Shown here: piece by piece, positions 2,860-27,745 of the stretch
Numbering within the stretch: position 1 is the stretch's first letter
How the letters are laid out: each line of letters opens with the position of its first letter
Assembly (NCBI RefSeq): GCF_000354175.2
Contig: NC_022359.1
Span: 870,001-902,000, forward strand
Origin: Vibrio alginolyticus NBRC 15630 = ATCC 17749
Lineage (GTDB): Bacteria; Pseudomonadota; Gammaproteobacteria; Enterobacterales; Vibrionaceae
Length of the DNA: 32,000 nt
Direction of reading: 5' to 3'
Position numbers and translations under genes: made by a program
The notes under the pieces: generated by a model
Databases searched by the model: none
Seen by the model: the letters and a program-made list of their open reading frames with translations, nothing else
Told to the model about the DNA's origin: nothing

Positions 2860-2984
2860 CTCACCACTAATTACACTCGTTCTCTAAAGACGTTTTGATA
2901 AAAGCAATAACGATGCAAACCTGAAATCAGAGATTTATAACTTTTTAGTTGTGAACCATAATCAATAGGAATACTATCATTAAG

Positions 2985-3016
2985 CCAAGTGACCTAACTT
3001 GGTTCTTTGTTTTTTT
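2985..3016 (+). terminator. Weak terminator-like hairpin plus T-tract immediately 5' of vemP
   Basis: CCAAGT-gaccta-ACTTGG (6-bp stem) followed by TTCTTTGTTTTTTT. It ends 11 nt before the vemP ATG. Confidence 0.35.
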
Positions 3017-3027
3017 AGTGAGTTCCT

Positions 3028-3507
3028 ATGCCTTGGATTTACCTTAGAAAATTGATTTTGCTGCTATTTGCAATGGTATTGCTACCAGTGCATGTATCTG
3101 CTGCGCAAATCGATCACAAGGCTCACGTACCGCACTTTTCTAAGCTACAACCTTTTGTAGCCGTAAGTGTATCGCCAAACTCTTCCGTCGATTTTTCTGA
3201 AGCTTCAGAAGAAAGCTCTCAATCTCCAGTATCTGAAGGCCATGCAAGTCTCGATTCCGTTGCTTTGTTTAACTCTCAGCGCTGGACGTCTTACTTACGG
3301 GAAGGGCTTGATGACGAGCACGTAGATTTTGTCGGCGATCTCACTACTCCGTTTTACGCTGATGCGGGTTACGCATACAGCTTGATGGACATTAACTGGC
3401 GTCACAACCAGTCCACATTTTATCATTTCACAAGCGATCATCGCATTTCTGGTTGGAAAGAGACCAATGCCATGTACGTCGCACTCAATAGTCAGTTTTC
3501 TGCCTAA
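3028..3507 (+). CDS. vemP: VemP, the secretion-monitoring translation-arrest leader peptide of the secDF2 operon
   Basis: 159 aa with a Sec signal peptide (..LLPVHVSA|AQ). The C-terminus reads FTSDHRISGWKETNAMYVALNSQFSA, which I recognise as the VemP arrest motif (H138-Q156, stall at Q156). It sits directly upstream of, and co-oriented with, secD-secF. Confidence 0.9.
   Translation: MPWIYLRKLILLLFAMVLLPVHVSAAQIDHKAHVPHFSKLQPFVAVSVSPNSSVDFSEASEESSQSPVSEGHASLDSVALFNSQRWTSYLREGLDDEHVDFVGDLTTPFYADAGYAYSLMDINWRHNQSTFYHFTSDHRISGWKETNAMYVALNSQFSA
3439..3495 (+). promoter_or_regulatory. Codons for the ribosome-arrest motif HRISGWKETNAMYVALNSQ (residues 138-156; Gln156 codon at 3493-3495)
   Basis: Direct translation of 3439-3495. 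The residue numbering matches the reported arrest point, three codons before the stop. Confidence 0.85.
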
Positions 3508-3640
3508 ACACCATTTATTTGCACCATTGTGCACTCTTAACACGACGATTGTATTCGACAGGACGTGAGCGTTCTGAGCATTTCATACCTTGAATTTATT
3601 CTGGGAGCACCTGTCGTGTGTTAAGCCTTGTTATTAAAAG

Positions 3641-3658
3641 CTTCACTTCATCGTGAAG
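3641..3658 (+). promoter_or_regulatory. Hairpin occluding the Shine-Dalgarno sequence of secD
   Basis: CTTCAC-ttcatc-GTGAAG. The 3' arm contains 4 of the 6 nt of the only SD-like element (GAAGGG, 3655-3660) ahead of the secD ATG at 3672. Confidence 0.55.
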
Positions 3659-3671
3659 GGATGATGTTTAC

Positions 3672-5510
3672 ATGAAAAAAACACCAAAGCAGCAAAAGAA
3701 CAGAAAGCTGATGAATCACTACTCAGCTTGGAAATATGTAGTATTAATCACGACGGTCATTATTTTAACCCTAAGTGCTATACCAACTTGGTTTGGCGAA
3801 CAGCCTTCTATCCAGTTGACGTTTTCGGAGCAAAACAACAGTGAAATGTCGGTTGTTCATCTGAATCAACTGCTAAAAACCAACCATATTTCAGCCGACA
3901 AAATCATCGAAAAAGACGGCAAAACAACCATTGTATTCGATGGTGAAGATGCGCAAAGTAAAGCTCGTGCGTTGTTAAACAAAGAGCTAAATAAAGACGA
4001 CAGCATCACTTTCTCATACGTATCGGTTGCGCCAGAATGGTTAAATGAGATGGGCTTTAGCCCAATTAAGCTCGGTCTTGACCTTCGTGGTGGCGTTCAG
4101 TTCTTGTTGAATGTTGATGTGAATAAAGCGTTTGAAGAACAACGTGATGCGTTGATTGATGAAATCAAAGCGAATCTGCGTGATCAACGTGTTCGTGGTG
4201 TGCAAGTTCGAGCAGAGAACGGCAACCGAATTACGGTAAACAGTGACAGCGAGCAAGCATTGTCGGAAGTGAACAAGTTCTTGCGTCAAAATTACCCGGG
4301 CTGGATTTCAAAAAGTTCATCTCGTGGCTTTGTGCTTGAACCGAGTGAACAAAATATCCAAGAATTTCAATCGTCGACTCTTCAACAAAACCTGAAGATC
4401 ATGCGTGGTCGTATTGAAGAACTTGGTATCACAGAAGCACTAGTGCAACGCCAAGGTAAAGAGAGCATTCGAATTGAGCTCCCTGGTGTACAAGATCCTG
4501 CTCAAGCGAAAAACGTTATTGGTGCAACAGCAAGCTTGGCGTTTTATGAAGTGAAAGATGCGAGCCAAGCACACAGCAGCCAAGATCTTGTTCTTCAAGA
4601 TAATGATGGTCGTACTGTGATTTTGGCAAAACGACCAGTTCTAACGGGCGAGCACATCGTGAACGCTCGTGCTGGTGTCGACAAAATGGGCATGTCAGAG
4701 GTAAATATTTCTCTTGACCACGCTGGTGGTAAGAAAATGAGTGACTTCTCAGCAACTCACATCGGCAAGCCAATGGCGACCGTTTACCGAGAGTACAAAA
4801 CAAACGATCGCGGTGTAACTGAGCGTAGTGAGCGCGTTATCAGCGTCGCAACTATTCAATCTCAACTTGGTAGCCAGTTCCGTATTACTGGGGCAGGTAG
4901 CATGGACGATGCGCAGCAGTTGGCGCTATTGCTTCGCGCGGGGTCACTGACCGCGCCAGTTACTATTGTGGAAGAGCGAACAATCGGTGCTTCTCTGGGT
5001 GCAGAAAACATTGAAAACGGTTTTGCAGCACTGGCTTTAGGTATGGGACTAACACTGACCTTTATGGCACTTTGGTACCGCCGCTTAGGTTGGGTAGCAA
5101 ATGTGGCGCTTTGTGCCAACATGCTTTGTTTACTTGGCTTAATCGCCTTGTTACCAGGAGCGGTTCTAACGCTTCCAGGTATTGCCGGTTTAGTGTTAAC
5201 CGTCGGTATGGCAGTAGACACCAACGTTATTATCTTTGAACGTATTAAGGACAAAATGCGTGAAGGCCGCAGCTTCGCTCAAGCGATTGATCTTGGCTTT
5301 GACAGCGCATTCTCGACCATCCTTGATGCCAACATTACTACCATGATCACCGCCGTGATTTTGTACGCCATCGGTAATGGCCCAATCCAAGGCTTTGCCT
5401 TAACACTCGGATTAGGTTTGTTAACCAGTATGTTTACAGGCGTATTTGCCTCTCGAGCAATGATCAATTTAATTTGGGGCCGCGATGCCCGTCGTGATGT
5501 GAGGGTTTAA
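3672..5510 (+). CDS. secD: Protein translocase subunit SecD (second paralogue, SecD2)
   Basis: 612 aa with an N-terminal TM, a large periplasmic domain containing the LDLRGGV motif, and a C-terminal 5-TM bundle. An alternative start at ATG 3711 (MNHYSAWKY..) aligns better with the E. coli SecD N-terminus. Confidence 0.93.
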   Translation: MKKTPKQQKNRKLMNHYSAWKYVVLITTVIILTLSAIPTWFGEQPSIQLTFSEQNNSEMSVVHLNQLLKTNHISADKIIEKDGKTTIVFDGEDAQSKARALLNKELNKDDSITFSYVSVAPEWLNEMGFSPIKLGLDLRGGVQFLLNVDVNKAFEEQRDALIDEIKANLRDQRVRGVQVRAENGNRITVNSDSEQALSEVNKFLRQNYPGWISKSSSRGFVLEPSEQNIQEFQSSTLQQNLKIMRGRIEELGITEALVQRQGKESIRIELPGVQDPAQAKNVIGATASLAFYEVKDASQAHSSQDLVLQDNDGRTVILAKRPVLTGEHIVNARAGVDKMGMSEVNISLDHAGGKKMSDFSATHIGKPMATVYREYKTNDRGVTERSERVISVATIQSQLGSQFRITGAGSMDDAQQLALLLRAGSLTAPVTIVEERTIGASLGAENIENGFAALALGMGLTLTFMALWYRRLGWVANVALCANMLCLLGLIALLPGAVLTLPGIAGLVLTVGMAVDTNVIIFERIKDKMREGRSFAQAIDLGFDSAFSTILDANITTMITAVILYAIGNGPIQGFALTLGLGLLTSMFTGVFASRAMINLIWGRDARRDVRV

Positions 5511-5512
5511 TC

Positions 5513-6415
5513 ATGGTCGAAATGCTAAAACAAAATATTCGTAAAATTCGCTACTTTACTACGCTAGTTTCCATCATTTTAACGGTGATCGCGATCGTCG
5601 CTCTAGGCTTTAAAGGGTTGAACCTAGGTTTGGACTTCACTGGCGGTATGGTGACAGAAGTAAAGGTAGATAAGCAGCTAACTAACCATGATCTGCTTGA
5701 CGTTCTGCAACCAAAGCTTGGTGAATCTGCGTCAGTGACACGCTCTGGTGAAGATGGCCGTTGGGTGATTCGTTACTCTGCGCCGGAAGATGGACAAACG
5801 TTGCCAAGTGTAGAAGAGGTGTTGAAGCCAATCTCTCACCAAGTTGATGTTGTCAGCAACAGTATAGTTGGCGCTCAAGTTGGCCAAGACTTGTTTGAAC
5901 AAGGTGGCTTAGCATTGTTGATTTGTGTGTTGAGTATTCTCGGTTACTTGTGTTTCCGTTTTGAGTGGCGTTTGGCAAGCGGTTCACTGTTTGCTTTGGC
6001 TCATGATGTGATCTTAGTGCTTGGTTTCTTTGCAATTACTCAAATGGAGTTCAACTTAACCGTTTTTGCTGCTGTGCTGGCGATTTTAGGTTACTCATTG
6101 AATGACTCGATCATCATTGCAGACCGAATCCGTGAGCTGTTGATTGCGAAACAGAGTTGGAAAACAGAAGACATCAATGATCAAGCTGTTATCGCGACGT
6201 TTTCACGCACTATGGTGACATCTGGTACGACATTGATCACTGTTGGTGCATTATGGATTATGGGAGGAGCGCCTTTGGCTGGTTTCTCAACCGCCATGTT
6301 TATTGGCGTTCTGTCGGGTACATGGTCTTCGATTTCGATTGGTACTGTGCTGCCGGAGTGGTTGAAACTGGAGCCGAAACATTATCTTCCAGTTGAGATT
6401 GACGCAGCGCCGTAG
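5513..6415 (+). CDS. secF: Protein translocase subunit SecF (SecF2)
   Basis: 300 aa starting 2 nt after the secD stop, with SD GAGGG 7 nt upstream. It has typical SecF TM topology and the conserved LNDSIIIADRIRE segment. Confidence 0.93.
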   Translation: MVEMLKQNIRKIRYFTTLVSIILTVIAIVALGFKGLNLGLDFTGGMVTEVKVDKQLTNHDLLDVLQPKLGESASVTRSGEDGRWVIRYSAPEDGQTLPSVEEVLKPISHQVDVVSNSIVGAQVGQDLFEQGGLALLICVLSILGYLCFRFEWRLASGSLFALAHDVILVLGFFAITQMEFNLTVFAAVLAILGYSLNDSIIIADRIRELLIAKQSWKTEDINDQAVIATFSRTMVTSGTTLITVGALWIMGGAPLAGFSTAMFIGVLSGTWSSISIGTVLPEWLKLEPKHYLPVEIDAAP

Positions 6416-6440: not shown

Positions 6441-6469
6441 GCGCCACTCATCTTGAGTGGCGCTTTTTT
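6441..6469. terminator. Bidirectional rho-independent terminator (secF and the 88-aa ORF)
   Basis: GCGCCACTC-atctt-GAGTGGCGC (9-bp stem) followed by TTTTTT, with an A-rich 5' flank. Confidence 0.85.
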
Positions 6470-6473
6470 GTGC

Positions 6474-8090: not shown

Positions 8091-8115
8091 AATGCCGTTA
8101 AGAATGGAGTCTTCA

Positions 8116-8856
8116 ATGAAGAAAGTCGCTTTGATCACTGGATCAAAAGGCGGAATTGGTTCTGCTATTTCCTCTCAATTAGTCAATGACGGTTACCGTG
8201 TAATCGCTACTTATTTCACAGGTAACTACGAATGTGCGCTGGAGTGGTTCAACAGCAAAGGGTTTACCAAAGATCAGGTTCGCCTTTTTGAGTTGGATGT
8301 AACAAACACGACAGAGTGTGCAGAGAAATTGGCGCAATTGCTTGGGGAGGAAGGAACCATTGATGTTGTTGTCAACAACGCAGGAATCACACGTGATGGC
8401 GTGTTTAAAAAGATGACTGCGCAAGCTTGGAATGATGTCATCAATACCAACCTCAATAGTTTATTCAACGTTACGCAACCCCTCTTTGCAGCAATGTGCG
8501 AAAAAGGCGGTGGTCGTGTCATCAATATCTCTTCAGTCAATGGTCTTAAAGGGCAGTTTGGTCAAGCAAACTACTCGGCGGCGAAAGCTGGGATGATCGG
8601 TTTCTCTAAAGCCTTAGCATACGAAGGTGCTCGCTCGGGTGTGACAGTTAATGTTATCGCTCCGGGTTACACGGGTACGCCAATGGTTGAGCAAATGAAG
8701 CCAGAAGTGCTGGAATCCATCACGAACCAAATTCCAATGAAACGTCTTGCGACACCAGAAGAAATTGCAGCATCAGTGAGCTTCTTGGTCAGCGATGCGG
8801 GCGCCTACATCACCGGAGAGACTTTGTCGGTGAACGGCGGCCTATACATGCACTAA
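8116..8856 (+). CDS. phaB: Acetoacetyl-CoA reductase (SDR family), PHB pathway
   Basis: The start at 8116 (MKKVALITGSKGGIGS) has GGAG 7 nt upstream. It carries the TGxxxGIG cofactor motif and the catalytic YSAAK, and sits in a cluster with a thiolase, a phasin and a PHA synthase. Confidence 0.92.
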   Translation: MKKVALITGSKGGIGSAISSQLVNDGYRVIATYFTGNYECALEWFNSKGFTKDQVRLFELDVTNTTECAEKLAQLLGEEGTIDVVVNNAGITRDGVFKKMTAQAWNDVINTNLNSLFNVTQPLFAAMCEKGGGRVINISSVNGLKGQFGQANYSAAKAGMIGFSKALAYEGARSGVTVNVIAPGYTGTPMVEQMKPEVLESITNQIPMKRLATPEEIAASVSFLVSDAGAYITGETLSVNGGLYMH

Positions 8857-8865
8857 GGAGAGAAG

Positions 8866-10077
8866 ATGATGGAAAAAGTATTTATCGTAGCGGCGAAGCG
8901 TACTCCAATTGGTGCTTTTGGTGGCAGCCTGAAAAATACTTCTGCTGGCGATCTGGCAGCAGTAGCGATTAAAGGCGCGTTGGAAGCGGCAAAGTTGCCT
9001 GGCGACAAGGTTGACGAAGTGATTGTTGGCAACGTTGTTGGTGCAGGTCAAGGAATGGGTGTTGGCCGCCAAGCGGCACTGTTTGCGGGGATTCCTGAAT
9101 CTGTTCCTGCATATGGCGTAAACATGGTTTGCGGTAGTGGCATGAAAACGGTCATGGATGCCGTGTCCCATATCCGTAGTGGCGATGCTGAGATCGTTGT
9201 TGCAGCGGGTGTTGAAGTCATGTCTCAGATTCCGTTTGCCGCACCAAGCAGCATTCGTGATGGCAACAAAATGGGCAATCTGGAGCTAAAAGATCTGCTC
9301 GTAGCGGACGGTTTAACCGATGTTTACAACCAATATCACATGGGTGTGACGGCAGAAAACGTAGCAAAACAAATCGGCTTAACTCGCCAGCAGCAAGACG
9401 AATACGCGCTGTCTAGCCAACAGAAAGCGGTAGCCGCTATCGAAGCTGGCAAATTTCAAGACGAAATTGTGCCAGTGGAAGTAAAGCAACGCCGTGAAAC
9501 CGTGATGTTTGATACGGATGAATACCCAAAAGCGAACGCGACAATGGAAGCCTTAAGCAAGCTACGTCCTGCTTTTGACCGCGAAGGCACTGTGACTGCG
9601 GGTAATGCATCAGGCATTAACGATGGAGCGAGTGCGATTATCGTGGCGTCTGAAAGCGCAGTTAAAGCGCATGGATTAACGCCGCTTGCTGAGATCGTAA
9701 GCTATGCGCAATCGGGTCTTGATCCGAAGATCATGGGCCTAGGTCCTGTTGAGTCGGTCAATAAAGCACTCGAAAAAGCAGAACTCACAGTAAATGATAT
9801 CGACGTTTACGAGTTAAACGAAGCATTTGCAGCGCAAGCACTTGGCGTGATTCATCAGTTGGCGGAAACAAACCAAGTTCCAGTTAACGCGATTCAAGAT
9901 AAAGCGAACTTTAACGGTGGTGCTATCGCGCTAGGACACCCGCTTGGTGCATCTGGAAACCGAATCTTAGTCACGCTGGTTCACGAGCTTCATAAGCAAA
10001 ATGGTCAATATGGCGTTGCTTCACTTTGTGTGGGCGGCGGCATGGGCACGGCTGTGGTTGTAAAGACAGTTAAGTAA
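8866..10077 (+). CDS. phaA: Acetyl-CoA acetyltransferase (biosynthetic thiolase)
   Basis: 403 aa with the active-site Cys context NMVCGSGMK and the C-terminal GNASGINDGA, NGGAIALGHPLGASG and CVGGGMG motifs. SD AAGGAG lies 5 nt upstream. Confidence 0.93.
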   Translation: MMEKVFIVAAKRTPIGAFGGSLKNTSAGDLAAVAIKGALEAAKLPGDKVDEVIVGNVVGAGQGMGVGRQAALFAGIPESVPAYGVNMVCGSGMKTVMDAVSHIRSGDAEIVVAAGVEVMSQIPFAAPSSIRDGNKMGNLELKDLLVADGLTDVYNQYHMGVTAENVAKQIGLTRQQQDEYALSSQQKAVAAIEAGKFQDEIVPVEVKQRRETVMFDTDEYPKANATMEALSKLRPAFDREGTVTAGNASGINDGASAIIVASESAVKAHGLTPLAEIVSYAQSGLDPKIMGLGPVESVNKALEKAELTVNDIDVYELNEAFAAQALGVIHQLAETNQVPVNAIQDKANFNGGAIALGHPLGASGNRILVTLVHELHKQNGQYGVASLCVGGGMGTAVVVKTVK

Positions 10078-10122
10078 TTATTTAAACGGACATTTTTTAA
10101 TTCTTTCTCTAGGAGACAAACC

Positions 10123-10470
10123 ATGTACACAGATTTCTTCAAAACATTTAGCGATCAAACTGAAAAAAATCTAGAACCTTACTTGAAGTTCAACAAGCTA
10201 GTGACAAAAAACGTAGAAGTGTTGACCGAGCTTCAATTGAACGCCATTCGCACATACAGTGAAGTGGGTCTAAACCAGATGAAAGCAGCGACAGAAATCA
10301 AAGACGTAACGTCATTGACTGCTTTCAACAGTCAGCAACTAAGCGTACTTACTAAACTTTCTCAACAAATGATGGATGACAGCAACAAGCTTCAAGCGAT
10401 TGCAAAAGAGTTCAAAGAAGACGTTGAGAAAATGACTTCGGAAAATCTAAAGACTGTTACTCCAGCGTAA
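10123..10470 (+). CDS. phaP: Phasin-family PHA granule-associated protein
   Basis: 115 aa, helical, amphipathic and lacking Cys and Trp, located between the thiolase and the PHA synthase. It has a strong SD (AGGAG, 7-nt spacer). Confidence 0.8.
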   Translation: MYTDFFKTFSDQTEKNLEPYLKFNKLVTKNVEVLTELQLNAIRTYSEVGLNQMKAATEIKDVTSLTAFNSQQLSVLTKLSQQMMDDSNKLQAIAKEFKEDVEKMTSENLKTVTPA

Positions 10471-10483
10471 TTTGTCCGATTCT

Positions 10484-10516
10484 CGCCGCCCCTAGATTTG
10501 GGCGGCGTTGTTTTTT
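10484..10516 (+). terminator. Strong intrinsic terminator or attenuator between phaP and phaC
   Basis: CGCCGCCC-ctagattt-GGGCGGCG (8-bp GC-rich stem) followed by TTGTTTTTT. It begins 14 nt after the phaP stop and ends 8 nt before the phaC SD. Confidence 0.8.
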
Positions 10517-10536
10517 CCGAATATAGGAGTAAGACT

Positions 10537-12312
10537 ATGTTTCAACACTTCTTTTCGGACTATCTTGTGAAGCTTCAGGAAACCAATCATCAGTGGTGGC
10601 ATGATTTCGAAGTGAACAAGGCAGTCGTGAACTCTCCTTTAAACAAGGCCATGCAAGAAGTGAACTTTGAGGATACTGCCAAACTGTTCGAACAAGCTGC
10701 GAATCAGCCTGCTGCGATTTTAAAGCTGCAAGCACAGTGGTGGGAACAGCAGCTGCAAATTTGGCAGAATGTTGCATTGGCAGGGAACCAAGCACAAATC
10801 GTCGAAGCTGAAAAAGGGGATAAGCGTTTCTCAAACGAAGCGTGGCAAAATGAAGCCATGTATAGCTTCATCAAACAATCCTACCTTTTATTTAGTAAGA
10901 CCTATCTGGACACCATCGAGTCTTTGGAAGGCTTAGATGAAAAGACGAAAGAACGTATTATTTTTTTCTCTCGCCAAGCCATTAACGCCCTTTCTCCTTC
11001 CAACTTCATCGCCACTAACCCAGAGCTTTTGAAGCTGACACTTGAGCAAAACGGTCAAAACTTACTGGCAGGCTTAGAGCAGTTGAAAGAAGACGTTGAG
11101 TCGAGCGCAGACATTTTAAAAATTCGTATGACGAATAACAATGCATTCCGCGTGGGAGATGACGTTGCGACGACACAGGGCAATGTGGTTTTTCAAAACG
11201 AATTGTTTGAGTTGATTCAATATCGACCTCTAACAGAGAAAGTGAATGCGACGCCGCTGCTCATCGTCCCACCTTTCATCAATAAATACTACATCCTTGA
11301 TTTAACGGCAAAGAACTCAATGGTTCGATGGTTGTTAGAGCAGGGGCACAGTGTATTTATGATGTCTTGGCGCAATCCAGGCAAGGCACAAGCGCACATA
11401 GAGTTTGGTGACTACGTGACAGAAGGCGTAGTGAAAGCCGTCGCTGCAATTGAAGATATAACAGGACAAGAGCAAATCAATGCTGCTGGTTATTGTATTG
11501 GTGGTACTGTTTTAGCAAGCACGGTTGCGTACTACGCTGCAAAACGTATGAAGAAGCGCATTAAGTCTGCCACTTTCTTCACCACGTTGCTCGACTTCTC
11601 TCAACCAGGTGAAGTCGGCGCGTATATCAATGACACCATTGTTAGTGCAATTGAAGCGCAAAATAACGCGAAAGGGTATATGGACGGCCGTTCCTTAAGC
11701 GTGACGTTTAGTTTACTGCGTGAAAACAGCTTGTACTGGAACTACTACGTAGACAACTACTTGAAAGGCAATAGCCCAGTCGATTTTGACTTGTTGTACT
11801 GGAATAGTGACAGCACCAACGTCAGCGCTGCATCTCACAATTTCTTGCTTCGCGAGCTCTATTTAGAGAACAAGCTGGTGCAAGATAAAGGCGTCAAAAT
11901 TGGTGGAGTATGGATTGATCTAAATAAGATCAAAATTCCTAGCTATTTTGTGTCAACGAAAGAAGACCATATTGCGTTATGGCAGGGAACTTACCGTGGT
12001 GCGCTGAACACGGGTGGTAACAAAACATTTGTCCTCGGTGAGTCTGGTCATATTGCGGGCATCGTGAATCCTCCAGCTAAAAATAAGTATGGTTATTGGT
12101 TGAACGATAATTTGGATGACTCTGCTGATGAGTGGTTGAATAACGCGGAACACAAAGAGGGATCGTGGTGGACACACTGGAACGAGTGGTTACTCCAATT
12201 CAACCCTAAAGAGCAAGTTGAGCCTTTCCCTATTGGCTCAGAAAACCATCCGGTTATTGATGAGGCGCCAGGACAATACGTCAAACAGGTTCTGCCAGTA
12301 AAAGAATCTTAA
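10537..12312 (+). CDS. phaC: Class I poly(3-hydroxyalkanoate) synthase
   Basis: The start at ATG 10537 (MFQHFFSDYL) has AGGAG 7 nt upstream; the 10498 start in the ORF track would lie inside the terminator. About 591 aa with the lipase-box catalytic Cys (GYCIGG) and an alpha/beta-hydrolase C-terminal half. Confidence 0.93.
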   Translation: MFQHFFSDYLVKLQETNHQWWHDFEVNKAVVNSPLNKAMQEVNFEDTAKLFEQAANQPAAILKLQAQWWEQQLQIWQNVALAGNQAQIVEAEKGDKRFSNEAWQNEAMYSFIKQSYLLFSKTYLDTIESLEGLDEKTKERIIFFSRQAINALSPSNFIATNPELLKLTLEQNGQNLLAGLEQLKEDVESSADILKIRMTNNNAFRVGDDVATTQGNVVFQNELFELIQYRPLTEKVNATPLLIVPPFINKYYILDLTAKNSMVRWLLEQGHSVFMMSWRNPGKAQAHIEFGDYVTEGVVKAVAAIEDITGQEQINAAGYCIGGTVLASTVAYYAAKRMKKRIKSATFFTTLLDFSQPGEVGAYINDTIVSAIEAQNNAKGYMDGRSLSVTFSLLRENSLYWNYYVDNYLKGNSPVDFDLLYWNSDSTNVSAASHNFLLRELYLENKLVQDKGVKIGGVWIDLNKIKIPSYFVSTKEDHIALWQGTYRGALNTGGNKTFVLGESGHIAGIVNPPAKNKYGYWLNDNLDDSADEWLNNAEHKEGSWWTHWNEWLLQFNPKEQVEPFPIGSENHPVIDEAPGQYVKQVLPVKES

Positions 12313-12628: not shown

Positions 12629-13207
12629 TTAGTGCCAGCCTTCAACGCCGCTCATGTCTGGTAGTTTGTGCGCAATACCTTTGTGACAGTCTACACATGT
12701 TTTCTCGCCTGAAGCGAGAGCGGTGGAGTGCTGTTCTGCCGCACGTGATCCTTGCTGAGAGTAATCCATGAAATCAAACTCATGACAGTTACGACATTCA
12801 AGAGAGTCATTCTTTTTCATACGTGCCCACTCTCGCTCTGCGAGGTGTCCACGACGCTCTTGGAACTTCTCTGGCGTATCGATCGTCTTCGTTACGAAGT
12901 GTGCAAATAGCTCTTTAGATGCCTGTACTTTACGAACGATCTTATCCGTCCATTCATGAGGAACGTGACAGTCTGAACAAATCGCACGAACACCAGAACG
13001 GTTGGAGTAGTGAATTGTTTCTTGAATTTCAGCAACGATCGGCGCGTGACAGCCAGAACAGAATTCTTCTGTGTTGGTTGCTTCCATACCTGTGTTGAAT
13101 GCGCCCCAAAATAGAAGGCCACCAGCGAAGCCTAGAAATAAAACCACACCAGCGGCAGCTTTACTCGGGCTCGACAGTCTCTTCCAAAACGCTTTAAGTA
13201 TTTTCAT
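12629..13207 (-). CDS. napC: Tetrahaem cytochrome c quinol dehydrogenase NapC
   Basis: 192 aa with an N-terminal TM anchor and four CxxCH motifs (CSGCH, CSDCH, CRNCH, CVDCH). It is the last large gene of the nap operon. Confidence 0.95.
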   Translation of the reverse strand: MKILKAFWKRLSSPSKAAAGVVLFLGFAGGLLFWGAFNTGMEATNTEEFCSGCHAPIVAEIQETIHYSNRSGVRAICSDCHVPHEWTDKIVRKVQASKELFAHFVTKTIDTPEKFQERRGHLAEREWARMKKNDSLECRNCHEFDFMDYSQQGSRAAEQHSTALASGEKTCVDCHKGIAHKLPDMSGVEGWH

Positions 13208-13235
13208 AAGTAACCTCTTAGTACTCGCGTTTCAA

Positions 13236-13694
13236 TTACTGAAGCGAATCGACTGCCTTAAACTCGTTTTCCACTAGTGGTTTTGCATCCGTTTGTGGAA
13301 CGTGACATTGCAAACAGAAGTAACGACGAGGAGACATATCTGCCAGTACCGCATCTTCTCTGTTTACATAGTGCGTTACGCTAATTTTAGTCGCACCTGA
13401 CTCTTTTGCATTTTTCCAGCTATGGCATGCAAGACACTTGTTAGCATTTAACGAAATTTCGTAGTGACGAATGCTGTGTGGGATCAACGGTGGTTGATAA
13501 ACATAGCTGTCTTCAACAATTTGATCTTTAGGGAAGTCTTTGAACTCGTCTGCTGGACGCGTATCTTCCAATTGAGACATTCCACGTAAAGATTCTAGAC
13601 CTCCAATACCACCTGGATTATCCAACTCAGCTTGCGCAATGCCTGTCACTAACGCACCTACAGATAAAACTGCGACAAGTAATTTTTTCATCAT
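13236..13694 (-). CDS. napB: Dihaem cytochrome c NapB
   Basis: 152 aa with a signal peptide (..GIAQA|E) and two CxxCH motifs (CLACH, CLQCH). It follows napA. Confidence 0.95.
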   Translation of the reverse strand: MMKKLLVAVLSVGALVTGIAQAELDNPGGIGGLESLRGMSQLEDTRPADEFKDFPKDQIVEDSYVYQPPLIPHSIRHYEISLNANKCLACHSWKNAKESGATKISVTHYVNREDAVLADMSPRRYFCLQCHVPQTDAKPLVENEFKAVDSLQ

Positions 13695-13769
13695 TTCATC
13701 TCCGCCTTTATGGCTTAAATTCTTTATTAGGCCGCCATAATGACGGCCGTAGCATTCAGTATCTGAAGG

Positions 13770-16259
13770 TTAAGCAATCTTAGTGATTTTGACTGGGCAC
13801 TTCTTAAAGTCTGTCTGTTTAGACAGTGGATCAGTCGCATCTAGGATAAGCTTGTTAATCAAAATACGTGCATCAAAGAACGGTACGAATACCAAGCCTT
13901 TTGGCGGACGGTTACGACCGCGAGTTTCAACACGAACGCGTACTTCACCGCGTTTGTTTGCCATGAGTACTTCTTCACCACGACGAACATTGCGTGCTTT
14001 TGCGTCTTCTGGGTGCATGTAACACACTGCGTCTGGTACTGCTTTGTATAATTCAGGTACACGACGAGTCATGGTGCCTGTGTGCCAATGCTCAAGAACA
14101 CGACCAGTACATAACCACATATCAAATTCATCGTTCGGTACTTCTGGTGGCGCTTCGTATGGCGCGGAAATGATCTTCGCTTTGCCATCAGCATTGCCGT
14201 AGAAGTCCCAACCAGAACCTTCTTTTGCGTATGGGTCTGAACCTTCTTTAAAGCGCCACTGTGTTTCTTTACCATCAACAACAGGCCAACGTAGACCACG
14301 TACTTGATGGTAGCGGTCGTATGGAGCCAAATCATGCCCGTGACCACGGCCAAATGTTGCGTATTCCTCAAACAGACCTTTTTGAACATAGAAACCGAAG
14401 TGGTGAGCATCGTCATTCAGTTCACGAGCTTCTTCGATAGGGAATTTGTCGACGTTACCATTGCGGTAAAGTACGTCGTACATTGTTTTACCACGGTATT
14501 GAGGCGCTTTCGCTAGAAGCTCTTCAGGCCACACTTCTTCCATTTTGAAGCGTTTCGAGAACTCCATTAGCTGCCACAGGTCGGATTTTGCTTGACCGAC
14601 TGTGCCCACTTGTTGGTACCAAGCTTGAGTACGACGCTCTGCGTTACCGTAAGCACCTTCTTTTTCAATCCACATTGCGGTAGGAAGAATAAGGTCTGCT
14701 GCTTGTGCTGTTGCTGTCGGGTATGGGTCAGACACAACGATGAAGTTTTCTGGGTTGCGGTAACCTGGAAGACGTTCTGTGTTGATGTTTGGACCGGCTT
14801 GCATGTTGTTGTTACATTGAACCCAGTAACAGTTCAGAACGCCGTCATTCAGCATACGGTCTTGCAATACGGCGTGGAAGCCAGGTTTTGGTGGAATCGT
14901 ACCTTCTGGCAGTTTCCAGATGTCTTCTGCAATCTTACGGTGTTTAGGGTTAGCAACCACCATGTCCGCTGGTAGGCGGTGAGCAAACGTACCAACCTCA
15001 CGAGCGGTACCACATGCTGATGGTTGGCCCGTTAGTGAGAATGGACTGTTCCCCGGAGTCGAGATCTTACCGGTTAGTAGGTGGATGTTGTAAACCAAGT
15101 TATTCATCCATACACCACGAGTATGCTGGTTCATGCCCATTGTCCATAGAGACATCACTTTCGTGTTTGGATCCGCGTATTGCTTCGCAAGCTCGATAAG
15201 CTTCTCTTTCTCAACACCAGAGATTTCAGATGCTTTCTCTACTGTGTATGGCGCTACTGATTTCTTGTACTCTTCGAATGAGATAGAAGTGAGTTTGCCA
15301 GAGTTCGGGTTCTTCGCTGCTTTTTGTAGCGGATCATCGTCACGTAGACCGTAGCCGATGTCAGTGTCTGCTTGAGTGAAGTTCGTGTGTTTGTTCACGA
15401 AGTCCCAGTTTACTGCATCGTTTTCGATGATGTAGTTTGCGATGAAGTTAGCAATTGCAAGGTCAGACTGAGGATTGAAAATGTAGCCGTGGTCTGCCAA
15501 CTCAAATGAACGATGGTAGTAAGTAGAAAGCACGTTCACTTTAACGTGAGGGTGGCTTAGGCGGCGGTCAGTAATGCGAGTCCATAGAACCGGGTGCATC
15601 TCTGCCATGTTTGAGCCCCAAAGAACGAAAGCGTCTGCGTTCTCAAAGTCATCGTAACAACCCATTGGCTCATCGATACCGAATGCGCGCATGAAACCTA
15701 CAACGGCAGAAGCCATACAGTGGCGAGCGTTTGGATCAATGTTGTTTGATCGGAAGCCTGCTTTCATTAACTTTGATGCAGCGTAGCCTTCCATTACTGT
15801 CCATTGGCCTGAGCCAAACATACCTACGCTTGTTGGGCCTTTTTTCTCGAGGGAAGCTTTCCATTTCTCAGCCATGATGTCGAAAGCGTCATCCCAAGAG
15901 ATAGGTGTAAATTCACCATCTTTGTGGAATTTGCCATCTTTCATTCGTAGCATCGGTTGAGTTAGACGGTCTTGACCGTACATGATCTTAGAAAGGAAGT
16001 AACCTTTGATGCAGTTCAGACCTTTGTTTACTGGTGCTTCTGGGTCACCCTGTGTTGCTACCACTTTGCCGTTTTGAGTGCCAACAAGAACAGAACAGCC
16101 TGTACCACAGAAACGACAAGGTGCTTTGTCCCATGTGATTTTGGTTTGATCAGAGCTTGCAATCAGGTTGGCTGCAGATGCTGGTAGTGTCACACCTGCG
16201 ACAGCAGCAGCTGATGCAGCCGCGTTTGCTTTCACAAACGCACGTCTTGTCATTTTCAT
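13770..16259 (-). CDS. napA: Periplasmic nitrate reductase catalytic subunit NapA (Mo-bisMGD, 4Fe-4S)
   Basis: 829 aa with a twin-arginine signal ([13 protein letters not shown]) and an N-terminal 4Fe-4S motif (CRFCGTGC). It has molybdopterin oxidoreductase architecture. Confidence 0.97.
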
Positions 16260-16564
16260 ACTTCACCCTCGATTTGGGAATGTTGTGTTCCAGTGTCTTC
16301 TTCATCCGTTTCTTCAAGCCCAGTTTCGATTTGGTGATAAACCAATACCGTGCTTAAGACGTTCGGTAAATTGTTAATGGCATCGATAGTGTCTGTGATG
16401 AAACCTTGGTTCTCAGTTTCAAGTACGACGATAATCTTGCCTTCAGGACTGTCACCATAGATTTCCGCATTTTCGTGTGCTTCTATCTTTTGTTTGATTT
16501 CGTCCAAATGTTCCGGCAGCACATGTACTACCAAACTTGAAATATGCACTTCATTTAGTGACAT
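16256..16564 (-). CDS. napD: NapA chaperone NapD
   Basis: 102 aa with the typical HISSLVV N-terminus. A 4-nt ATGA overlap joins it to the napA start, and it sits between napF and napA. Confidence 0.9.
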
Positions 16565-16611
16565 ATAGCTCTCTCATTTATTTTTATTGCCTTTGGCCGA
16601 CGACATTCGGC

Positions 16612-17097
16612 TTAGGCTGTTGTATTGCTCACATTGATGGATGAAGTCGGGCAAACTGAAACACAGGCGCCGCAGCCGTTACACTCATCAAGGTCTAAAT
16701 TGGGTTGTGCTACTTTCCCCAGTTCTAATTTGAACTGAATTGCCATCGGGTCGCACATATCCCCACAGCTTCGGCATTCGACATTTTGTTTTGCTAAGCA
16801 GTTATCGTTGATACTTGCTTTTGCTTGCCAAGGTTGTTCTGTTTCTGGCAAGAAAAGGGGCTCAGGACAGGCGTTTGCACATTGATAGCAAAATGTGCAT
16901 TCATCGATGGAAAAATCGACCGAGGGGAATCCGCCATCACTTTTGGTTATAATCTTTGTTTCACAGGCCTCAATGCATTTACCGCAGCGAGTGCAATCGT
17001 CCGTAAACTGTTGCGGTTTAGTTAACCAAGGCAAACGTACGGCGTTGTCGGGGTGCGCTTTTCTTGCAAAGAGTCTTCTTCTGGAAAGGTCTACCAC
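16612..17097 (-). CDS. napF: Ferredoxin-type iron-sulfur protein NapF
   Basis: 161 aa with a GTG start and SD GAGGTG 5 nt upstream. It has four Cys clusters (CTRCGKCIEAC, CTFCYQCANAC, CRSCGDMC, CNGCGACVSVC) and an N-terminal SRRRLF pseudo-Tat motif. Confidence 0.93.
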   Translation of the reverse strand: MVDLSRRRLFARKAHPDNAVRLPWLTKPQQFTDDCTRCGKCIEACETKIITKSDGGFPSVDFSIDECTFCYQCANACPEPLFLPETEQPWQAKASINDNCLAKQNVECRSCGDMCDPMAIQFKLELGKVAQPNLDLDECNGCGACVSVCPTSSINVSNTTA

Positions 17098-17204
17098 TTA
17101 GTCACCTCGAAACTTGGAACCCAAACTAAGCATAGTCCACAATTTTCATTAATAAACTGTCATTTAAACTAACGAAATTGTAGTTTTTGACATATTTGTA
17201 TAAA

Positions 17205-17220
17205 TACCTCTTAGGGGGTA
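17205..17220. promoter_or_regulatory. NarP/NarL 7-2-7 heptamer pair in the napF-narQ divergent region
   Basis: TACCTCT-ta-GGGGGTA against the consensus TACYYMT-nn-AKRRGTA, with one mismatch. It lies about 42 bp upstream of the TSS implied by a minus-strand TACAAT -10 hexamer (17182-17177). Confidence 0.6.
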
Positions 17221-17234
17221 AATGGTATGCAATA

Positions 17235-17248
17235 TTGTTTTGGATCAA
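17235..17248. promoter_or_regulatory. FNR-type site upstream of napF
   Basis: TTGTT-ttgg-ATCAA against TTGAT-n4-ATCAA, with one mismatch. It is centred about 29 bp upstream of the NarP site relative to napF. Confidence 0.45.
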
Positions 17249-17326
17249 TAAATTCCGTCGCAGGTGATCACATATTGATAAAGTTGAAAGGTAATGGGTT
17301 CATTGCACGTACAAATAGGATTGTTA

Positions 17327-19081
17327 ATGGGCGAGGAACTCAGATTGTTTAAAAATGTGAAAAAGTCAGTGACGCGCACGATTGCGTCCGCGATGCTTCT
17401 TATTTTGCTGCTCTCAGTCGCTACGACTGGTTTTGCGATTTTTACGTTAGCGTCCAGTTTGAACGATGCTGAAGCCGTCAATGTTGCTGGCTCGATGCGA
17501 ATGCAAAGCTACCGTCTGGCGAATGATATTCAGGTTAAATCTGTTGACTATTCTTCACATATTGACGCATTTGAACATTCGATATATTCACCTTCAATGA
17601 AAGCGCTTCAGCATTGGTCTGTGCCTGAAGACATCACTCACGATTACTACCGTCTTATTATCAGATGGCATGAACTCAAGGCGGTGCTGAGAGGAGACAA
17701 CCCGGCAGAATATCAACTCCTAGTGGCCGGTTTTGTTGAACAAATCGATGAGTTTGTATTTAAGCTGCAAAGCTTTTCGGAGCAAAAACTGATTAACTTA
17801 GCCTGGATCGGCGGGTTAGGGTTGGGTGGCATCCTTTGTGTCAGTATGTTTGTCGTTCATTTTGTGCGCCTCGAAGTTGTTCGGCCTCTGCGTGCCTTAG
17901 TTTTTGCTAGCGAGCAAATTAAAAATCGCTCATTCAATATATCGCTCAATGTATCTAGCGACAATGAAATGGGAATACTGACTCGAACCTTTAACCGGAT
18001 GGCGACAGACCTTGGTAAGTTGTACCGAGGATTAGAACAAGCGGTTGATGAGAAAACACGTAAATTGCAGCATGCCAACCAGTCTTTAGAAGTGCTGTAT
18101 GACTCGTCAAAAGAACTCACGGCGTCGCGTATTAATCAAGACAATTTCCAGGCGATTTTGCAGCATATCGTCAGTCTTGAGGGCATTAAAGCGGTCAAAC
18201 TTGAAATCGAGCAGCTGGGAGAACCGAGCTGGATATTGATGGAAGGAGAAGAATGCTGCCAAGATTGTGATGAAGATTGCCACGGTAAAGCCCTGATGCT
18301 AGATGGTGAGCACTTGGGTTATTTATATTGGAAAGCAGGGTTACCTTGTCCGAACGAGGCTCTTATTGACAACTTCGTGCAGATTTTATCACGCGCCGTG
18401 TATTACAATCGGGCGCAGCGCCAAGCAGAACAAATTCTGCTGATGGAAGAGCGAGCCACTATTGCTCGGGAGTTGCATGATTCATTGGCTCAAGCACTCT
18501 CTTACTTAAAAATTCAGGTCGCTTTGTTGAAGAGAAGCGTAAAGAACTTGCCTGACGAAAAGGCGATCGCGCAGGCTAATCAAGTTATTGCCGAGCTAGA
18601 TACGGGCTTATCTGCCGCTTATACGCAGTTACGCGAGTTACTGACGACGTTTCGTCTTACGATTAAAGAGGGCAGTTTTGGCCAAGCATTGCAAGACATG
18701 GTTGAAACGCTCAGTGAACAAACTGCTGCGGACATTACGCTAAAAAATAGACTTTCATCAACTGAACTGGATGCACATCAGCAGGTTCATTTACTACAGT
18801 TGATAAGAGAAGCGGCAATTAATGCTATCAAACATGCGCAAGCAGATAATATTCACATTCAATGTCTCGATAATGATGGAAAAGTCACAGTAACCGTTAG
18901 CGACGATGGAATAGGCTTTGAACATCAAGACGAAAAATTAAATCATTACGGTATGAGTATCATGCAAGAGCGGGCCGCTAGACTGCATGCCGATCTGCAC
19001 ATCGAAGCATCGATAAACAAAGGTTGTACCGTAAAATTAGAATTCCAACATAGTAAGGAAGTAAACAGTGACAGTGTGTAA
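17327..19081 (+). CDS. narQ: Nitrate/nitrite sensor histidine kinase NarQ
   Basis: It has two TMs flanking a periplasmic domain with the P-box DAEAVNVAGSMRMQSYRL, then HAMP, a Cys-containing central module, the H-box RELHDSLAQ and an ATPase domain. The start is uncertain: ATG 17327 has the better SD spacing (AGGA, 6 nt), while the ORF track uses 17294. Confidence 0.9.
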   Translation: MGEELRLFKNVKKSVTRTIASAMLLILLLSVATTGFAIFTLASSLNDAEAVNVAGSMRMQSYRLANDIQVKSVDYSSHIDAFEHSIYSPSMKALQHWSVPEDITHDYYRLIIRWHELKAVLRGDNPAEYQLLVAGFVEQIDEFVFKLQSFSEQKLINLAWIGGLGLGGILCVSMFVVHFVRLEVVRPLRALVFASEQIKNRSFNISLNVSSDNEMGILTRTFNRMATDLGKLYRGLEQAVDEKTRKLQHANQSLEVLYDSSKELTASRINQDNFQAILQHIVSLEGIKAVKLEIEQLGEPSWILMEGEECCQDCDEDCHGKALMLDGEHLGYLYWKAGLPCPNEALIDNFVQILSRAVYYNRAQRQAEQILLMEERATIARELHDSLAQALSYLKIQVALLKRSVKNLPDEKAIAQANQVIAELDTGLSAAYTQLRELLTTFRLTIKEGSFGQALQDMVETLSEQTAADITLKNRLSSTELDAHQQVHLLQLIREAAINAIKHAQADNIHIQCLDNDGKVTVTVSDDGIGFEHQDEKLNHYGMSIMQERAARLHADLHIEASINKGCTVKLEFQHSKEVNSDSV

Positions 19082-19700
19082 AGTAATGCTGGTGGATGAT
19101 CATCCACTCATGCGAAGAGGTATCCACCAGCTTTTAAGCTTTGAGCCTGAGTTTGAGGTTATTGCAGAAGCAAGTAATGGCGCGGATGCAGTAGCGAAAG
19201 CGCATGAGCTGGAACTGGATCTTGTACTTCTTGATCTTAATATGAAAGGCATGTCTGGCCTTGATACTTTGCAAGCACTGCGTGCAGATGGCTGTGAAGC
19301 CAGAATTGTCATTCTAACCGTTTCAGATAGCCCAGCAGATATCGAAGCAATAGTTCGAAGTGGTGCCGATGGCTATTTATTGAAAGACACTGAGCCCGAT
19401 GAGTTGGTTGAGTTGCTAAAACAAGCGCACCAAGGGGACAAGGCATACAGCCAAGAAGTTTCTAAGTATTTGAGTGAACGTTCAGAGCAAGAGGACGTGT
19501 TTGATACACTGACCGATCGTGAATCTCAGATCTTAAGAGAGGTGGCAAGAGGTTTCCGCAACAAGCAAATTGCCGATCGTCTTTTTATCTCTGAGTCTAC
19601 GGTTAAAGTACATATGAAGAGTTTACTTAAAAAGCTTCAAGTTCCTTCTCGTACTGCAGCAACCGTCCTTTATCTTGAGCGCTTTGGCGACATCAAATAA
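19068..19700 (+). CDS. narP: Nitrate/nitrite response regulator NarP (NarL/FixJ family)
   Basis: 210 aa with a receiver domain (VMLVDDHPLMRRG, LVLLDLNMKGMSG) and a LuxR-type HTH (ESQILREVARGFRNKQIADRLFISESTVKVH). The GTG start overlaps the narQ 3' end by 14 nt, with AAGGA upstream. Confidence 0.92.
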   Translation: MTVCKVMLVDDHPLMRRGIHQLLSFEPEFEVIAEASNGADAVAKAHELELDLVLLDLNMKGMSGLDTLQALRADGCEARIVILTVSDSPADIEAIVRSGADGYLLKDTEPDELVELLKQAHQGDKAYSQEVSKYLSERSEQEDVFDTLTDRESQILREVARGFRNKQIADRLFISESTVKVHMKSLLKKLQVPSRTAATVLYLERFGDIK

Positions 19701-24584: not shown

Positions 24585-24592
24585 GGGGCACT

Positions 24593-27500: not shown

Positions 27501-27745
27501 CGTTACGTTTCCGCGCTGTGAATATGACATCTTGGTCATTTATTCTGGGTATCTTCCCGCTTATCTTTGCCGCTGGCGCGGGGCACGTGAGTCAAAACTC
27601 ACTCGGCGTGTCGCTGATTGGTGGTCTATTGTGTGTGCTTCTAGCAGGTACATTCTTGATCCCAGGCTTCTACGCTCTGGTGCAAAGACAGCGTGAGAAA
27701 GTTCATGGTGGCAACACCAAGCTGGTTCCTCTTGATGATGAATAA
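24593..27745 (+). CDS. RND multidrug efflux permease (AcrB/AcrD/AcrF family)
   Basis: 1050 aa with a 12-TM architecture and two large periplasmic loops. The conserved TM4 segment is [19 protein letters not shown]. It starts 8 nt after the adaptor gene, with SD AGGGGG. Confidence 0.95.

Follow-up and report, generated by a model that had tools for sequence, protein, structure and literature searches.

The vemP-secD2-secF2 locus

Three complete, co-oriented genes occupy the plus strand between positions 3028 and 6415 of the window, by which we mean the whole 32,000-nt stretch of DNA analysed here. The first is vemP (3028..3507), identified from the listing of open reading frames (ORFs) and a match in the PDB. 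It has an ATG start codon, 159 codons and a stop codon at 3505-3507, and encodes a secreted monitoring substrate, an arrest leader peptide. A spacer of 164 nt (3508..3671) separates vemP from secD2 (3672..5510; 612 aa), and a gap of 2 nt lies between the stop codon of secD2 and the start codon of secF2 (5513..6415; 300 aa). Together they form the vemP-secD2-secF2 operon, probably on chromosome 2. A secD-secF pair also follows the vemP-like ORF in every related locus for which ORFs were listed.

Both secD2 and secF2 were assigned with Pfam and NCBIfam. SecD2 contains the Pfam domains SecD-TM1, Sec_GG, SecD_1st, SecDF_P1_head and SecD_SecF_C, while SecF2 contains Sec_GG and SecD_SecF_C. Both exceed their NCBIfam cut-offs (SecD2, NF009545, 1094 bits vs 728; SecF2, TIGR00966, 268 bits vs 160), and TIGR01129 scored 437 against a cut-off of 244 at this secDF2 locus. 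They align with E. coli SecD (5mg3_D; E = 1e-151) and SecF (5mg3_F; E = 1e-54), respectively. A transmembrane Asp of SecD and an Arg of SecF are needed for ion-driven activity. D516 of SecD2 aligns with D526 of 5mg3_D; assuming a tag offset of 7, this would be native D519, presumably the essential Asp519 of E. coli SecD. Likewise, R232 of SecF2 aligns with R247 of 5mg3_F, presumably the essential arginine R247 of E. coli SecF. With complete domain sets and the aligned Asp and Arg, SecDF2 looks functional, as judged from its sequence. Neither yajC nor a second secDF was found within the 32,000-nt window; according to the VemP literature, V. alginolyticus carries both SecDF1 and SecDF2 sets.

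Upstream of vemP, the sequence and an alignment point to a sigma-70 promoter at 2949..2977 on the plus strand (TTGTGA at 2949-2954, a 17-nt spacer and TACTAT at 2972-2977), which we regard as the candidate promoter of the operon. It is enclosed by a conserved block (~2925-2980) in an alignment of 11 Harveyi-clade upstream regions, across which the TTG of the first hexamer and the TAnTAT of the second are kept. A consensus promoter scan chose the adjacent site 2934-2962 instead. The candidate promoter is followed by a conserved leader hairpin on the plus strand (2983..3004) and a T-run (3005-3017). This hairpin was picked up as a terminator-like scan match and shows covariation: in Harveyi-clade loci 87% of its cells are paired, versus 22–44% with slid partners, and four pairs are altered on both sides. 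At the other end, a terminator scan and the sequence itself revealed an intrinsic-terminator-like hairpin on the plus strand (6441..6473; 10 bp, 7 of them G-C) with a T-run, which is likely the end of the operon.

VemP and its arrest motif

VemP residues 24-159 match the 'VemP nascent chain' of PDB 5NWY (chain 5nwy_s) with E = 3e-87, which excludes a chance match. The Gly-Ser linker of 5nwy_s aligns to S24-A25, and residues 26-159 equal the VemP portion of this chain, with H30 for Q as the sole exception. An exact-sequence look-up found the exact VemP, SecD and SecF sequences each under V. alginolyticus accessions, and this is the basis of the species assignment. In NCBI and UniRef, VemP is named 'hypothetical' or 'uncharacterized', and no Pfam or NCBIfam model matched it when both family libraries were searched.

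The first 25 codons of vemP (3028..3102, plus strand) encode an N-terminal cleavable Sec signal sequence. On reading the sequence, R7 K8 precedes a hydrophobic core (L9-L19), and V23-S24-A25 stands before the cleavage site; the signal-sequence-deleted PDB construct begins at A26 behind its Gly-Ser linker. Signal-sequence processing of VemP has been reported in the VemP literature. All elements for regulated cancellation of the arrest are present as well, namely Q65-S-P67, the segment V78-N82 (S77-VALFN82) and S83-Q84-R85, where Arg-85 stands three residues past the short hydrophobic segment. The Q65-x-P67 pattern, this hydrophobic segment and Arg-85 are all published cis elements of VemP (including PMC11470409).

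The arrest motif, located from the published motif, spans codons H138-Q156 (HRISGWKETNAMYVALNSQ; 3439..3495, plus strand), and the Gln156 codon lies at 3493-3495. Residues 138-156 are identical to 5nwy_s, and the window motif, H138-RISGWKETNAMYVALNS-Q156, fits the published HRIxGWKETNAMYVxLNxx. It also satisfies RxxxWKxxNxxY, the consensus used in the literature to classify VemP-like ORFs, since R139, W143, K144, N147 and Y150 are all present.

We compared the motif in 28 sequences, i.e., the window and 27 further Vibrio and Photobacterium loci. Thirteen of its 19 positions are invariant, and 10 of these 13 are encoded by two to six synonymous codons. Only the C-terminal arrest motif is conserved among the Vibrio and Photobacterium loci; the N-terminal part of VemP is divergent, and whole-protein identity of VemP-like proteins is as low as 31–38% in the genome scan. 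The distance from arrest codon to stop is always 1–4 codons (28 sequences). Because the motif residues are invariant despite synonymous codons and low whole-protein identity, the comparison argues that selection acts on VemP at the peptide level. The best match in the genome scan was V. diabolicus (79%), V. alginolyticus itself being absent from the matches. Two matches in an Arthrobacter metagenome-assembled genome covered only 24 residues and were treated as spurious.

These results agree with an earlier note on this DNA, which had described a 159-codon ORF with the N-terminus MPWIYLRKLILLLFAMVLLPVHVSA, followed by AQ, and the C-terminus FTSDHRISGWKETNAMYVALNSQFSA, and had named it VemP. The ORF list reproduces both termini exactly, and the Ser/Glu-rich middle that the note mentioned is seen at S47-S77 ('SVSPNSSVDFSEASEESSQSPVSEGHAS'). 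The proposed classical Sec signal peptide is recognisable by sequence reading in R7 K8, the hydrophobic core and V-S-A25. Its assignment of the C-terminus to the arrest motif H138-Q156 and of the ORF to VemP is borne out by the alignment with 5nwy_s and the fit to the published motif. Coordinates and family scores likewise confirm the complete, co-oriented secD-secF pair that it placed 164 nt downstream, and the NCBI and UniRef names fit its remark that pipelines call the ORF hypothetical.

RNA structure of the spacer and the secD2 start region

A consensus fold was calculated with RNAalifold from 16 Harveyi-clade sequences. In this fold 97% of the cells are paired, versus 35–49% with slid partners, seven pairs are altered on both sides, and the covariation score was reached by none of 500 shuffles. 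The single-sequence minimum-energy fold of 3493-3680 recovers the consensus structure (z = -1.9). The secD2 ribosome-binding site is involved in two elements of the fold, both on the plus strand. A long-range helix has its 5' strand at 3496..3516 (UUUUC 3496-3500, UAAACA 3505-3510 and CAUUU 3512-3516), spanning codons 157-159, the stop codon and 9 nt beyond. Its 3' strand, which is also seen in the pair counts, lies in the secD2 start region (3659..3678) and takes in the 3' half of the Shine-Dalgarno region as well as the spacer and the AUG. A local hairpin (3641..3658; CUUCAC-6 nt-GUGAAG) occludes the other, 5' half of this region; 100% of its cells are paired, and UUCAC/GUGAA is replaced by UUCGC/GCGAA in one species. 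The short-spacer clade has an analogous covarying hairpin, CUCGGC...GCUGAG.

Harveyi-clade sequences conserve the long-range helix, but none of its pairs is altered on both sides; hence, its support rests on the comparison between clades. The short-spacer clade follows this logic with other bases: UCCC behind the stop codon is paired with GGGA at the ribosome-binding site, and 4 of 10 sequences carry a joint change to UCUC/GAGA.

The spacer contains further structure on the plus strand. Just past the stop codon lies a small hairpin (3520..3533; UGCAC-cauu-GUGCA), found by RNAalifold, in the pair counts and in the minimum-energy fold, and short-spacer loci have an equivalent GTGACnnnGTCAC hairpin at this position. 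Comparative folding further revealed a structured insert of ~90 nt (3534..3628), which is restricted to the Harveyi clade and missing from the other Vibrio and Photobacterium loci (spacers of 48–97 nt). It consists of a long stem (3537-3547/3612-3624) around two hairpins (3559-3565/3570-3576 and 3588-3594/3599-3605), and two pairs of these inner hairpins covary from AU to GC. The conserved 5' leader hairpin and this clade-specific structured insert are two extras in the operon. Rfam gave no matches at gathering thresholds in the whole window, and a permissive scan of 2860-3760 gave chance-level matches only (E above 3).

Hard folding constraints served to imitate a stalled ribosome. They raised the mean accessibility of the ribosome-binding site from 0.30 to 0.46, but only when the upstream coding region was also occupied; blocking -15..+15 alone brought no increase. 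The effect is weak and model-dependent and amounts to a partial opening, with the 6-bp Shine-Dalgarno hairpin predicted to remain. Equivalent runs on related loci had the P-site one codon too far 3' and were used qualitatively only. In the computed folds, an mRNA structure that would sequester the secD2 ribosome-binding site is located where the stalled ribosome could reach it.

Interpretation and comparison with known systems

According to the VemP literature, VemP of V. alginolyticus is exported via SecYEG. Inside the exit tunnel of the ribosome, residues 138-156 adopt a compact fold and prevent the peptide bond from forming while Gln156-tRNA occupies the P-site. The arrest is cancelled when the active Sec machinery (SecDF1, PpiD) pulls the nascent VemP, whereas under weak export (e.g., at low Na+) the ribosome remains parked on vemP. 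An mRNA stem-loop contains the secD2 ribosome-binding site and is melted by the stalled ribosome; Na+ governs the switch between the primary, Na+-driven SecDF1 and SecDF2, the back-up protein-export motor. Arrest at Gln156 and its relief by Sec-dependent translocation have been demonstrated for a protein near-identical to the one encoded here.

We consider it almost certain that the window carries an intact vemP-secD2-secF2 operon, in which the arrest switch would unmask secD2 via the 3496-3516/3659-3678 helix. In the free mRNA, comparative folding suggests that 3496-3516 would pair with 3659-3678, while the 6-bp hairpin at 3641-3658 would mask the 5' half of the Shine-Dalgarno sequence. A ribosome parked at the codon 3493-3495 would cover ~3478-3508 and occupy the 5' strand of the helix, so that the secD2 start region would be freed and SecD2, with SecF2 closely following, would be made. 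The earlier note had likewise postulated an intact operon, and all three genes are complete and the published cis elements present. Its mechanism (Gln156 in the P-site, mRNA remodelling and Na+ switching) and its view that the system is a described rather than a new one are both in line with the literature on V. alginolyticus VemP.

Possibly, the same logic operates through another RNA switch, with the secD2 start (3662-3674) masked mainly by vemP codons 148-152 (3471-3481). This pairing occurs in the minimum-energy fold of 3440-3700 and recurs when the footprint -15..+15 alone is blocked, and a ribosome stalled at Gln156 would cover 3471-3481 or have just passed it. However, the helix has an internal loop as well as two G-U pairs, RNAalifold did not choose it in the 16-sequence alignment, and the longer fold, in which the start region pairs with this strand instead, does not outperform shuffles of the sequence (z = -0.04). 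Conservation of the strand is uninformative on structure, because the invariant Met-Tyr-Val-Ala codons constrain it. We regard masking by codons 148-152 as decidedly unlikely.

Transcriptional control would offer a different explanation, with a terminator or attenuator in the spacer, at which the stalled ribosome would cause anti-termination instead of uncovering the ribosome-binding site. Although the 164-nt spacer is long and rich in structure, and a terminator-like hairpin also occurs upstream of vemP, the spacer has no terminator-like site on the plus strand; the sole match is the Shine-Dalgarno hairpin on the opposite strand, and none of the spacer hairpins has a U-run behind it, which makes this explanation very improbable. 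It is scarcely credible that the ORF encodes an ordinary small periplasmic protein that stands beside secDF by chance, with no regulatory role in this strain. Its database name 'hypothetical protein' and the lack of a family model would fit such a protein, but the ORF is near-identical to VemP as characterised by experiment and structure, its conservation is limited to the C-terminal arrest motif, secD-secF lies downstream in every locus with ORFs listed, and the complementarity between stop-codon region and ribosome-binding site is conserved. The arrest switch acting through the 3496-3516/3659-3678 helix is our preferred reading.

Further, undescribed RNA-level control of the operon via the leader hairpin and T-run (2983-3017) or the insert (3534-3628) seems rather unlikely. 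Either element could serve for attenuation, affect mRNA stability, or offer a binding site to a small RNA, protein or ion through which SecDF2 induction is tuned, and both leave minor questions for research on VemP. The discovery value of the locus is little, because the system was described in V. alginolyticus in 2015 and structures and detailed genetics followed. The cross-clade comparison supplies exact positions at which the masking helix of the ribosome-binding site can be tested, and a family model based on [HY]R[IL][SA]GWK[ED]TNAMYVALN[SN][QH] plus secD context would fix hundreds of annotations.

This is an established system, and V. alginolyticus is the species in which it was discovered. 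VemP-SecD2/F2 of V. alginolyticus was described by Ishii et al. (2015), as cited in Su et al. (2017, eLife, PMC5449182), and was the subject of later papers (Miyazaki et al., 2020, PMC7793623; 2024, J Biol Chem, PMC11470409). The window contains the same gene from the same species, with 159 aa and identical motif 138-156, R85 and Q65-x-P67, and shares the operon order vemP-secD2-secF2 and the ribosome-binding site within mRNA structure. Differences from published VemP are strain polymorphisms only: residue 30 is H in the window and Q in PDB 5NWY, and SVALFN-S83 of the window reads TLALFN-T83 in the strain of PMC11470409.

In SecM-secA of E. coli, too, a monitoring substrate is secreted and bears its arrest sequence at the C-terminus, Sec force relieves the arrest, and the stalled ribosome opens a stem-loop masking the downstream ribosome-binding site. 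In contrast to VemP, SecM has an unrelated arrest sequence (FxxxxWIxxxxGIRAGP, with Pro at the A-site) and an extended rather than a compact, helical nascent chain, and it regulates secA instead of secDF. Similarly, MifM-yidC2 of B. subtilis combines a monitoring substrate with a downstream gene for a back-up protein-localisation factor, a paralogue induced when the primary factor fails. However, MifM monitors membrane insertion by YidC, uses an unrelated motif with several stall sites, and has an N-terminal membrane anchor, whereas VemP has a cleaved signal peptide. ApdA, ApdP and uDF_RQH of actinobacteria, alphaproteobacteria and Alteromonas are upstream ORFs that control a secondary secDF and likewise combine a localisation signal with a C-terminal arrest sequence; for uDF_RQH, the literature demonstrates stem-loop masking of the Shine-Dalgarno sequence experimentally. 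Their motifs (RAPP-type or RQH) are unrelated to that of VemP, and their evolution was independent of it.

Identity and layout of the operon

The operon is securely identified as VemP-SecDF2, a known system that was discovered in this very species. The reading given in the earlier note is supported, and the note was right to call the system described rather than new. A PDB sequence search matched residues 24–159 to the 'VemP nascent chain' (5NWY and four further entries; E=3e-87). The first two aligned positions are the construct's Gly-Ser linker, and over the VemP part of the chain (26–159) the sole difference is H30 in the window versus Q in the chain. Alignment to V. alginolyticus VemP, which the earlier note had proposed as a check, thus bears out the identity. 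Both NCBI and UniRef list the exact 159-aa VemP sequence and the exact SecD and SecF sequences as Vibrio alginolyticus proteins (e.g., AGV19712.1, AGV19713.1). VemP goes by 'hypothetical protein' or 'Uncharacterized protein' there, and searches of Pfam and NCBIfam found no model for the protein. Therefore, the remark that pipelines call this ORF hypothetical is correct.

The vemP ORF (3028..3507, + strand) begins with ATG and encodes 159 aa, as read from the ORF list and raw sequence. Its product has the N-terminus MPWIYLRKLILLLFAMVLLPVHVSAAQ, a Ser/Glu-rich middle and the C-terminus HFTSDHRISGWKETNAMYVALNSQFSA. A 164-nt spacer separates the vemP stop codon (3505–3507) from the next gene, which begins at 3672. 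Downstream lie secD (3672..5510; SecD2, 612 aa), with SecD-TM1, Sec_GG, SecD_1st, SecDF_P1_head and SecD_SecF_C domains, and secF (5513..6415; SecF2, 300 aa), with the SecF domain set. Both genes score above the curated NCBIfam thresholds (NF009545, 1094 bits against a cut-off of 728; TIGR00966, 268 against 160), and a strong terminator-like hairpin with a T-run (6441–6473) lies 3' of secF. The 159-codon ORF, 164-nt spacer and downstream secD-secF pair claimed previously are hence confirmed by the ORF list and domain searches. Compared with the E. coli proteins, SecD2 matches SecD along its entire length (E=1e-151) and SecF2 matches SecF (E=1e-54). In these alignments, SecD2 D516 corresponds to SecD D519 and SecF2 R232 to SecF R247, two residues that are essential in E. 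coli.

The upstream neighbours of vemP are a gene for an SH3-domain protein and an unannotated 182-aa ORF. Neither yajC nor a second secDF was found within the window, which fits a secondary secDF copy. V. alginolyticus also has a primary secD1/F1 (Su et al., 2017, PMC5449182; Miyazaki et al., 2020, PMC7793623; J Biol Chem 2024, PMC11470409; hereafter the VemP papers). An RND efflux pump at 23457–27745 comprises a membrane-fusion protein and a 1050-aa AcrB-family transporter. We rejected this transporter as a second SecDF; its SecD_SecF_C match is weak and secondary, as expected for a member of the RND superfamily. Elsewhere, the window carries a polyhydroxyalkanoate cluster (8092–12312; PhaB-like short-chain dehydrogenase, thiolase, phasin and PhaC synthase) and, on the - strand, a periplasmic nitrate reductase operon (12629–19700; NapC, NapB, NapA, NapD and a NapF-like ferredoxin), which adjoins a NarQ/NarP-like sensor kinase and response regulator pair on the + strand.

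The arrest peptide and its conservation

Published work places the arrest window at H138–Q156, with Q156 in the P-site (VemP papers). The published VemP motif is HRIxGWKETNAMYVxLNxx, and VemP-like ORFs have been classified by the consensus RxxxWKxxNxxY. Regulated cancellation of the arrest needs Q65-x-P67, a short hydrophobic segment and Arg-85 three residues beyond this segment (VemP papers, including PMC11470409). All published elements are present in the window: H138-RISGWKETNAMYVALNS-Q156, Q65-S-P67, S77-VALFN82 and S83-Q84-R85. The C-terminal stretch, claimed to be the arrest motif H138–Q156, indeed fits the published definitions. The signal sequence reads as R7 K8, a hydrophobic core and V-S-A25 followed by A26, the residue at which the PDB construct, made without signal sequence, starts. 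At codons 77–83 (3256–3276), the window shares SVALFN-S83 with the PDB chain, and the strain of the 2024 J Biol Chem paper (PMC11470409) has TLALFN-T83. This difference and H30 (codon 30, 3115–3117) are strain polymorphisms.

One scan of species-representative genomes with the window's VemP yielded 29 convincing loci, all from Vibrio or Photobacterium. A vemP-like ORF is followed by secD (~612 aa) and secF (~300 aa) in 27/27 loci, a count that leaves out two loci on short or truncated contigs. The ORF list of locus L028 likewise has secD and secF directly 3' of the vemP match; the homologous V. harveyi locus (L009) lies on chromosome 2. Two matches on separate contigs of an Arthrobacter metagenome-assembled genome (L030, L031) were rejected as spurious and most likely due to chance, as they cover VemP residues 91–114 only (71% identity over 24 aa) and lack the arrest motif.

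Whole-protein identity to the window's VemP drops as low as 31–38%, and the motif [HY]R[IL][SA]GWK[ED]TNAMYVALN[SN][QH] is near-invariant among the loci. In the window plus 27 loci (28 sequences), the amino acid never changes at 13 of the 19 motif positions. Ten of these 13 use 2–6 synonymous codons, the other three being Trp, Met and a Lys that is always AAA. Invariant residues with varied synonymous codons point to selection on the peptide, not on the RNA. The arrest position is His, not Gln, in six species, which are mostly Photobacterium and include V. metschnikovii and V. injensis. The arrest codon lies only 1–4 codons before the stop (28/28 sequences), so the start of the spacer stays within reach of a stalled ribosome.

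RNA structure at the secD2 start and the proposed switch

We ran RNAalifold on 16 aligned sequences of the Harveyi clade (the long-spacer Vibrio loci), from the motif end to the secD start. The consensus predicts a long-range helix in three parts: UUUUC (3496–3500) with GAAAA (3674–3678), UAAACA (3505–3510, the stop codon plus 3 nt) with UGUUUA (3665–3670), and CAUU (3512–3515) with GAUG (3660–3663). It further predicts a local hairpin (3641–3646 with 3653–3658) containing the 5' half of the Shine-Dalgarno region (GUGAAGGGAUGAU), a small hairpin (3520–3533), and a long stem (3537–3547 with 3612–3624) around two covarying hairpins. Pairing in this structure reaches 97% of cells, compared to 35–49% with partners slid by 1–3 columns; seven pairs changed on both sides, and the covariation score was reached by 0/500 shuffles. 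The window's own fold of 3493–3680 gives the same structure plus a G-U pair (3516/3659), with z=-1.9 and 7/200 shuffles folding as well. The long-range helix is conserved in the Harveyi clade with no pair changed on both sides, which is expected because it overlaps the stop codon and the start region.

At the short-spacer loci (48–97 nt), the ribosome-binding site contains GGGA, which pairs with UCCC just 3' of the stop. In four of these species the pairing is UCUC with GAGA, both strands having changed together, and a covarying hairpin over the Shine-Dalgarno (CUCGGC...GCUGAG) adjoins the UCCC/GGGA pairing. These loci give independent support for the helix, with other letters and the same logic. 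Both clades also carry a palindrome, or small perfect hairpin, 3' of the vemP stop: UGCAC-n4-GUGCA (3520–3533 in the window) and GTGAC-n3-GTCAC (short-spacer loci L017–L029). This palindrome may serve either as an RNA element or, at the DNA level, as the binding site of a dimeric protein.

In the free mRNA, comparative folding suggests that the region after the motif, with the stop, would pair with the secD2 start region. By the general size of ribosome footprints, a ribosome with codon 3493–3495 in the P-site covers roughly 3478–3508; parked there, it would occupy most of the helix's 5' strand. Helix and ribosome position agree with the literature, according to which the stalled ribosome dissolves a stem-loop that contains the secDF2 ribosome-binding site (VemP papers). 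When a stalled ribosome was imitated by hard constraints, the ribosome-binding site's mean unpaired probability rose only from 0.30 to 0.46, a gain seen only if the upstream coding region was also set as occupied, and the 6-bp Shine-Dalgarno hairpin was predicted to persist. Our exact masking helix is a well-supported prediction.

Transcriptional attenuation within the vemP-secD2 spacer is unlikely, because no terminator-like site was found on its + strand. That VemP is an ordinary secreted protein without a regulatory role is excluded; both the conservation pattern and the near-identity to the characterised VemP contradict it. What remains is a minor variant of the same mechanism, in which the ribosome-binding site pairs instead with vemP codons 148–152. 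This pairing of the secD2 start region appears when the longer fragment 3440–3700 is folded, but that fold is no better than that of shuffled sequence.

Leader, spacer insert and the known system

A conserved block upstream of vemP (2925–3017) contains a plausible promoter (TTGTGA 2949–2954, 17 nt, TACTAT 2972–2977) and, directly 3' of it, a hairpin (2983–3004) with a T-run (3005–3017). Covariation maintains this hairpin among species of the Harveyi clade. Its possible roles are termination of the upstream SH3-domain gene, stabilisation of the mRNA 5' end, or attenuation in the leader.

The spacer insert (~90 nt, 3534–3628) holds several helices, namely the long stem and the two covarying hairpins that it encloses; between these inner hairpins, an unpaired GAGCAUU is conserved. 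The insert is present in Harveyi-clade loci (spacers ~150–170 nt), shortened in V. mytili, and absent in the other Vibrio and Photobacterium loci (spacers 48–97 nt). The insert has no match in Rfam. The leader hairpin with its T-run and this clade-specific insert are the sole loose ends of the known system, from which the window's system differs only by strain-level substitutions, all outside the arrest motif.
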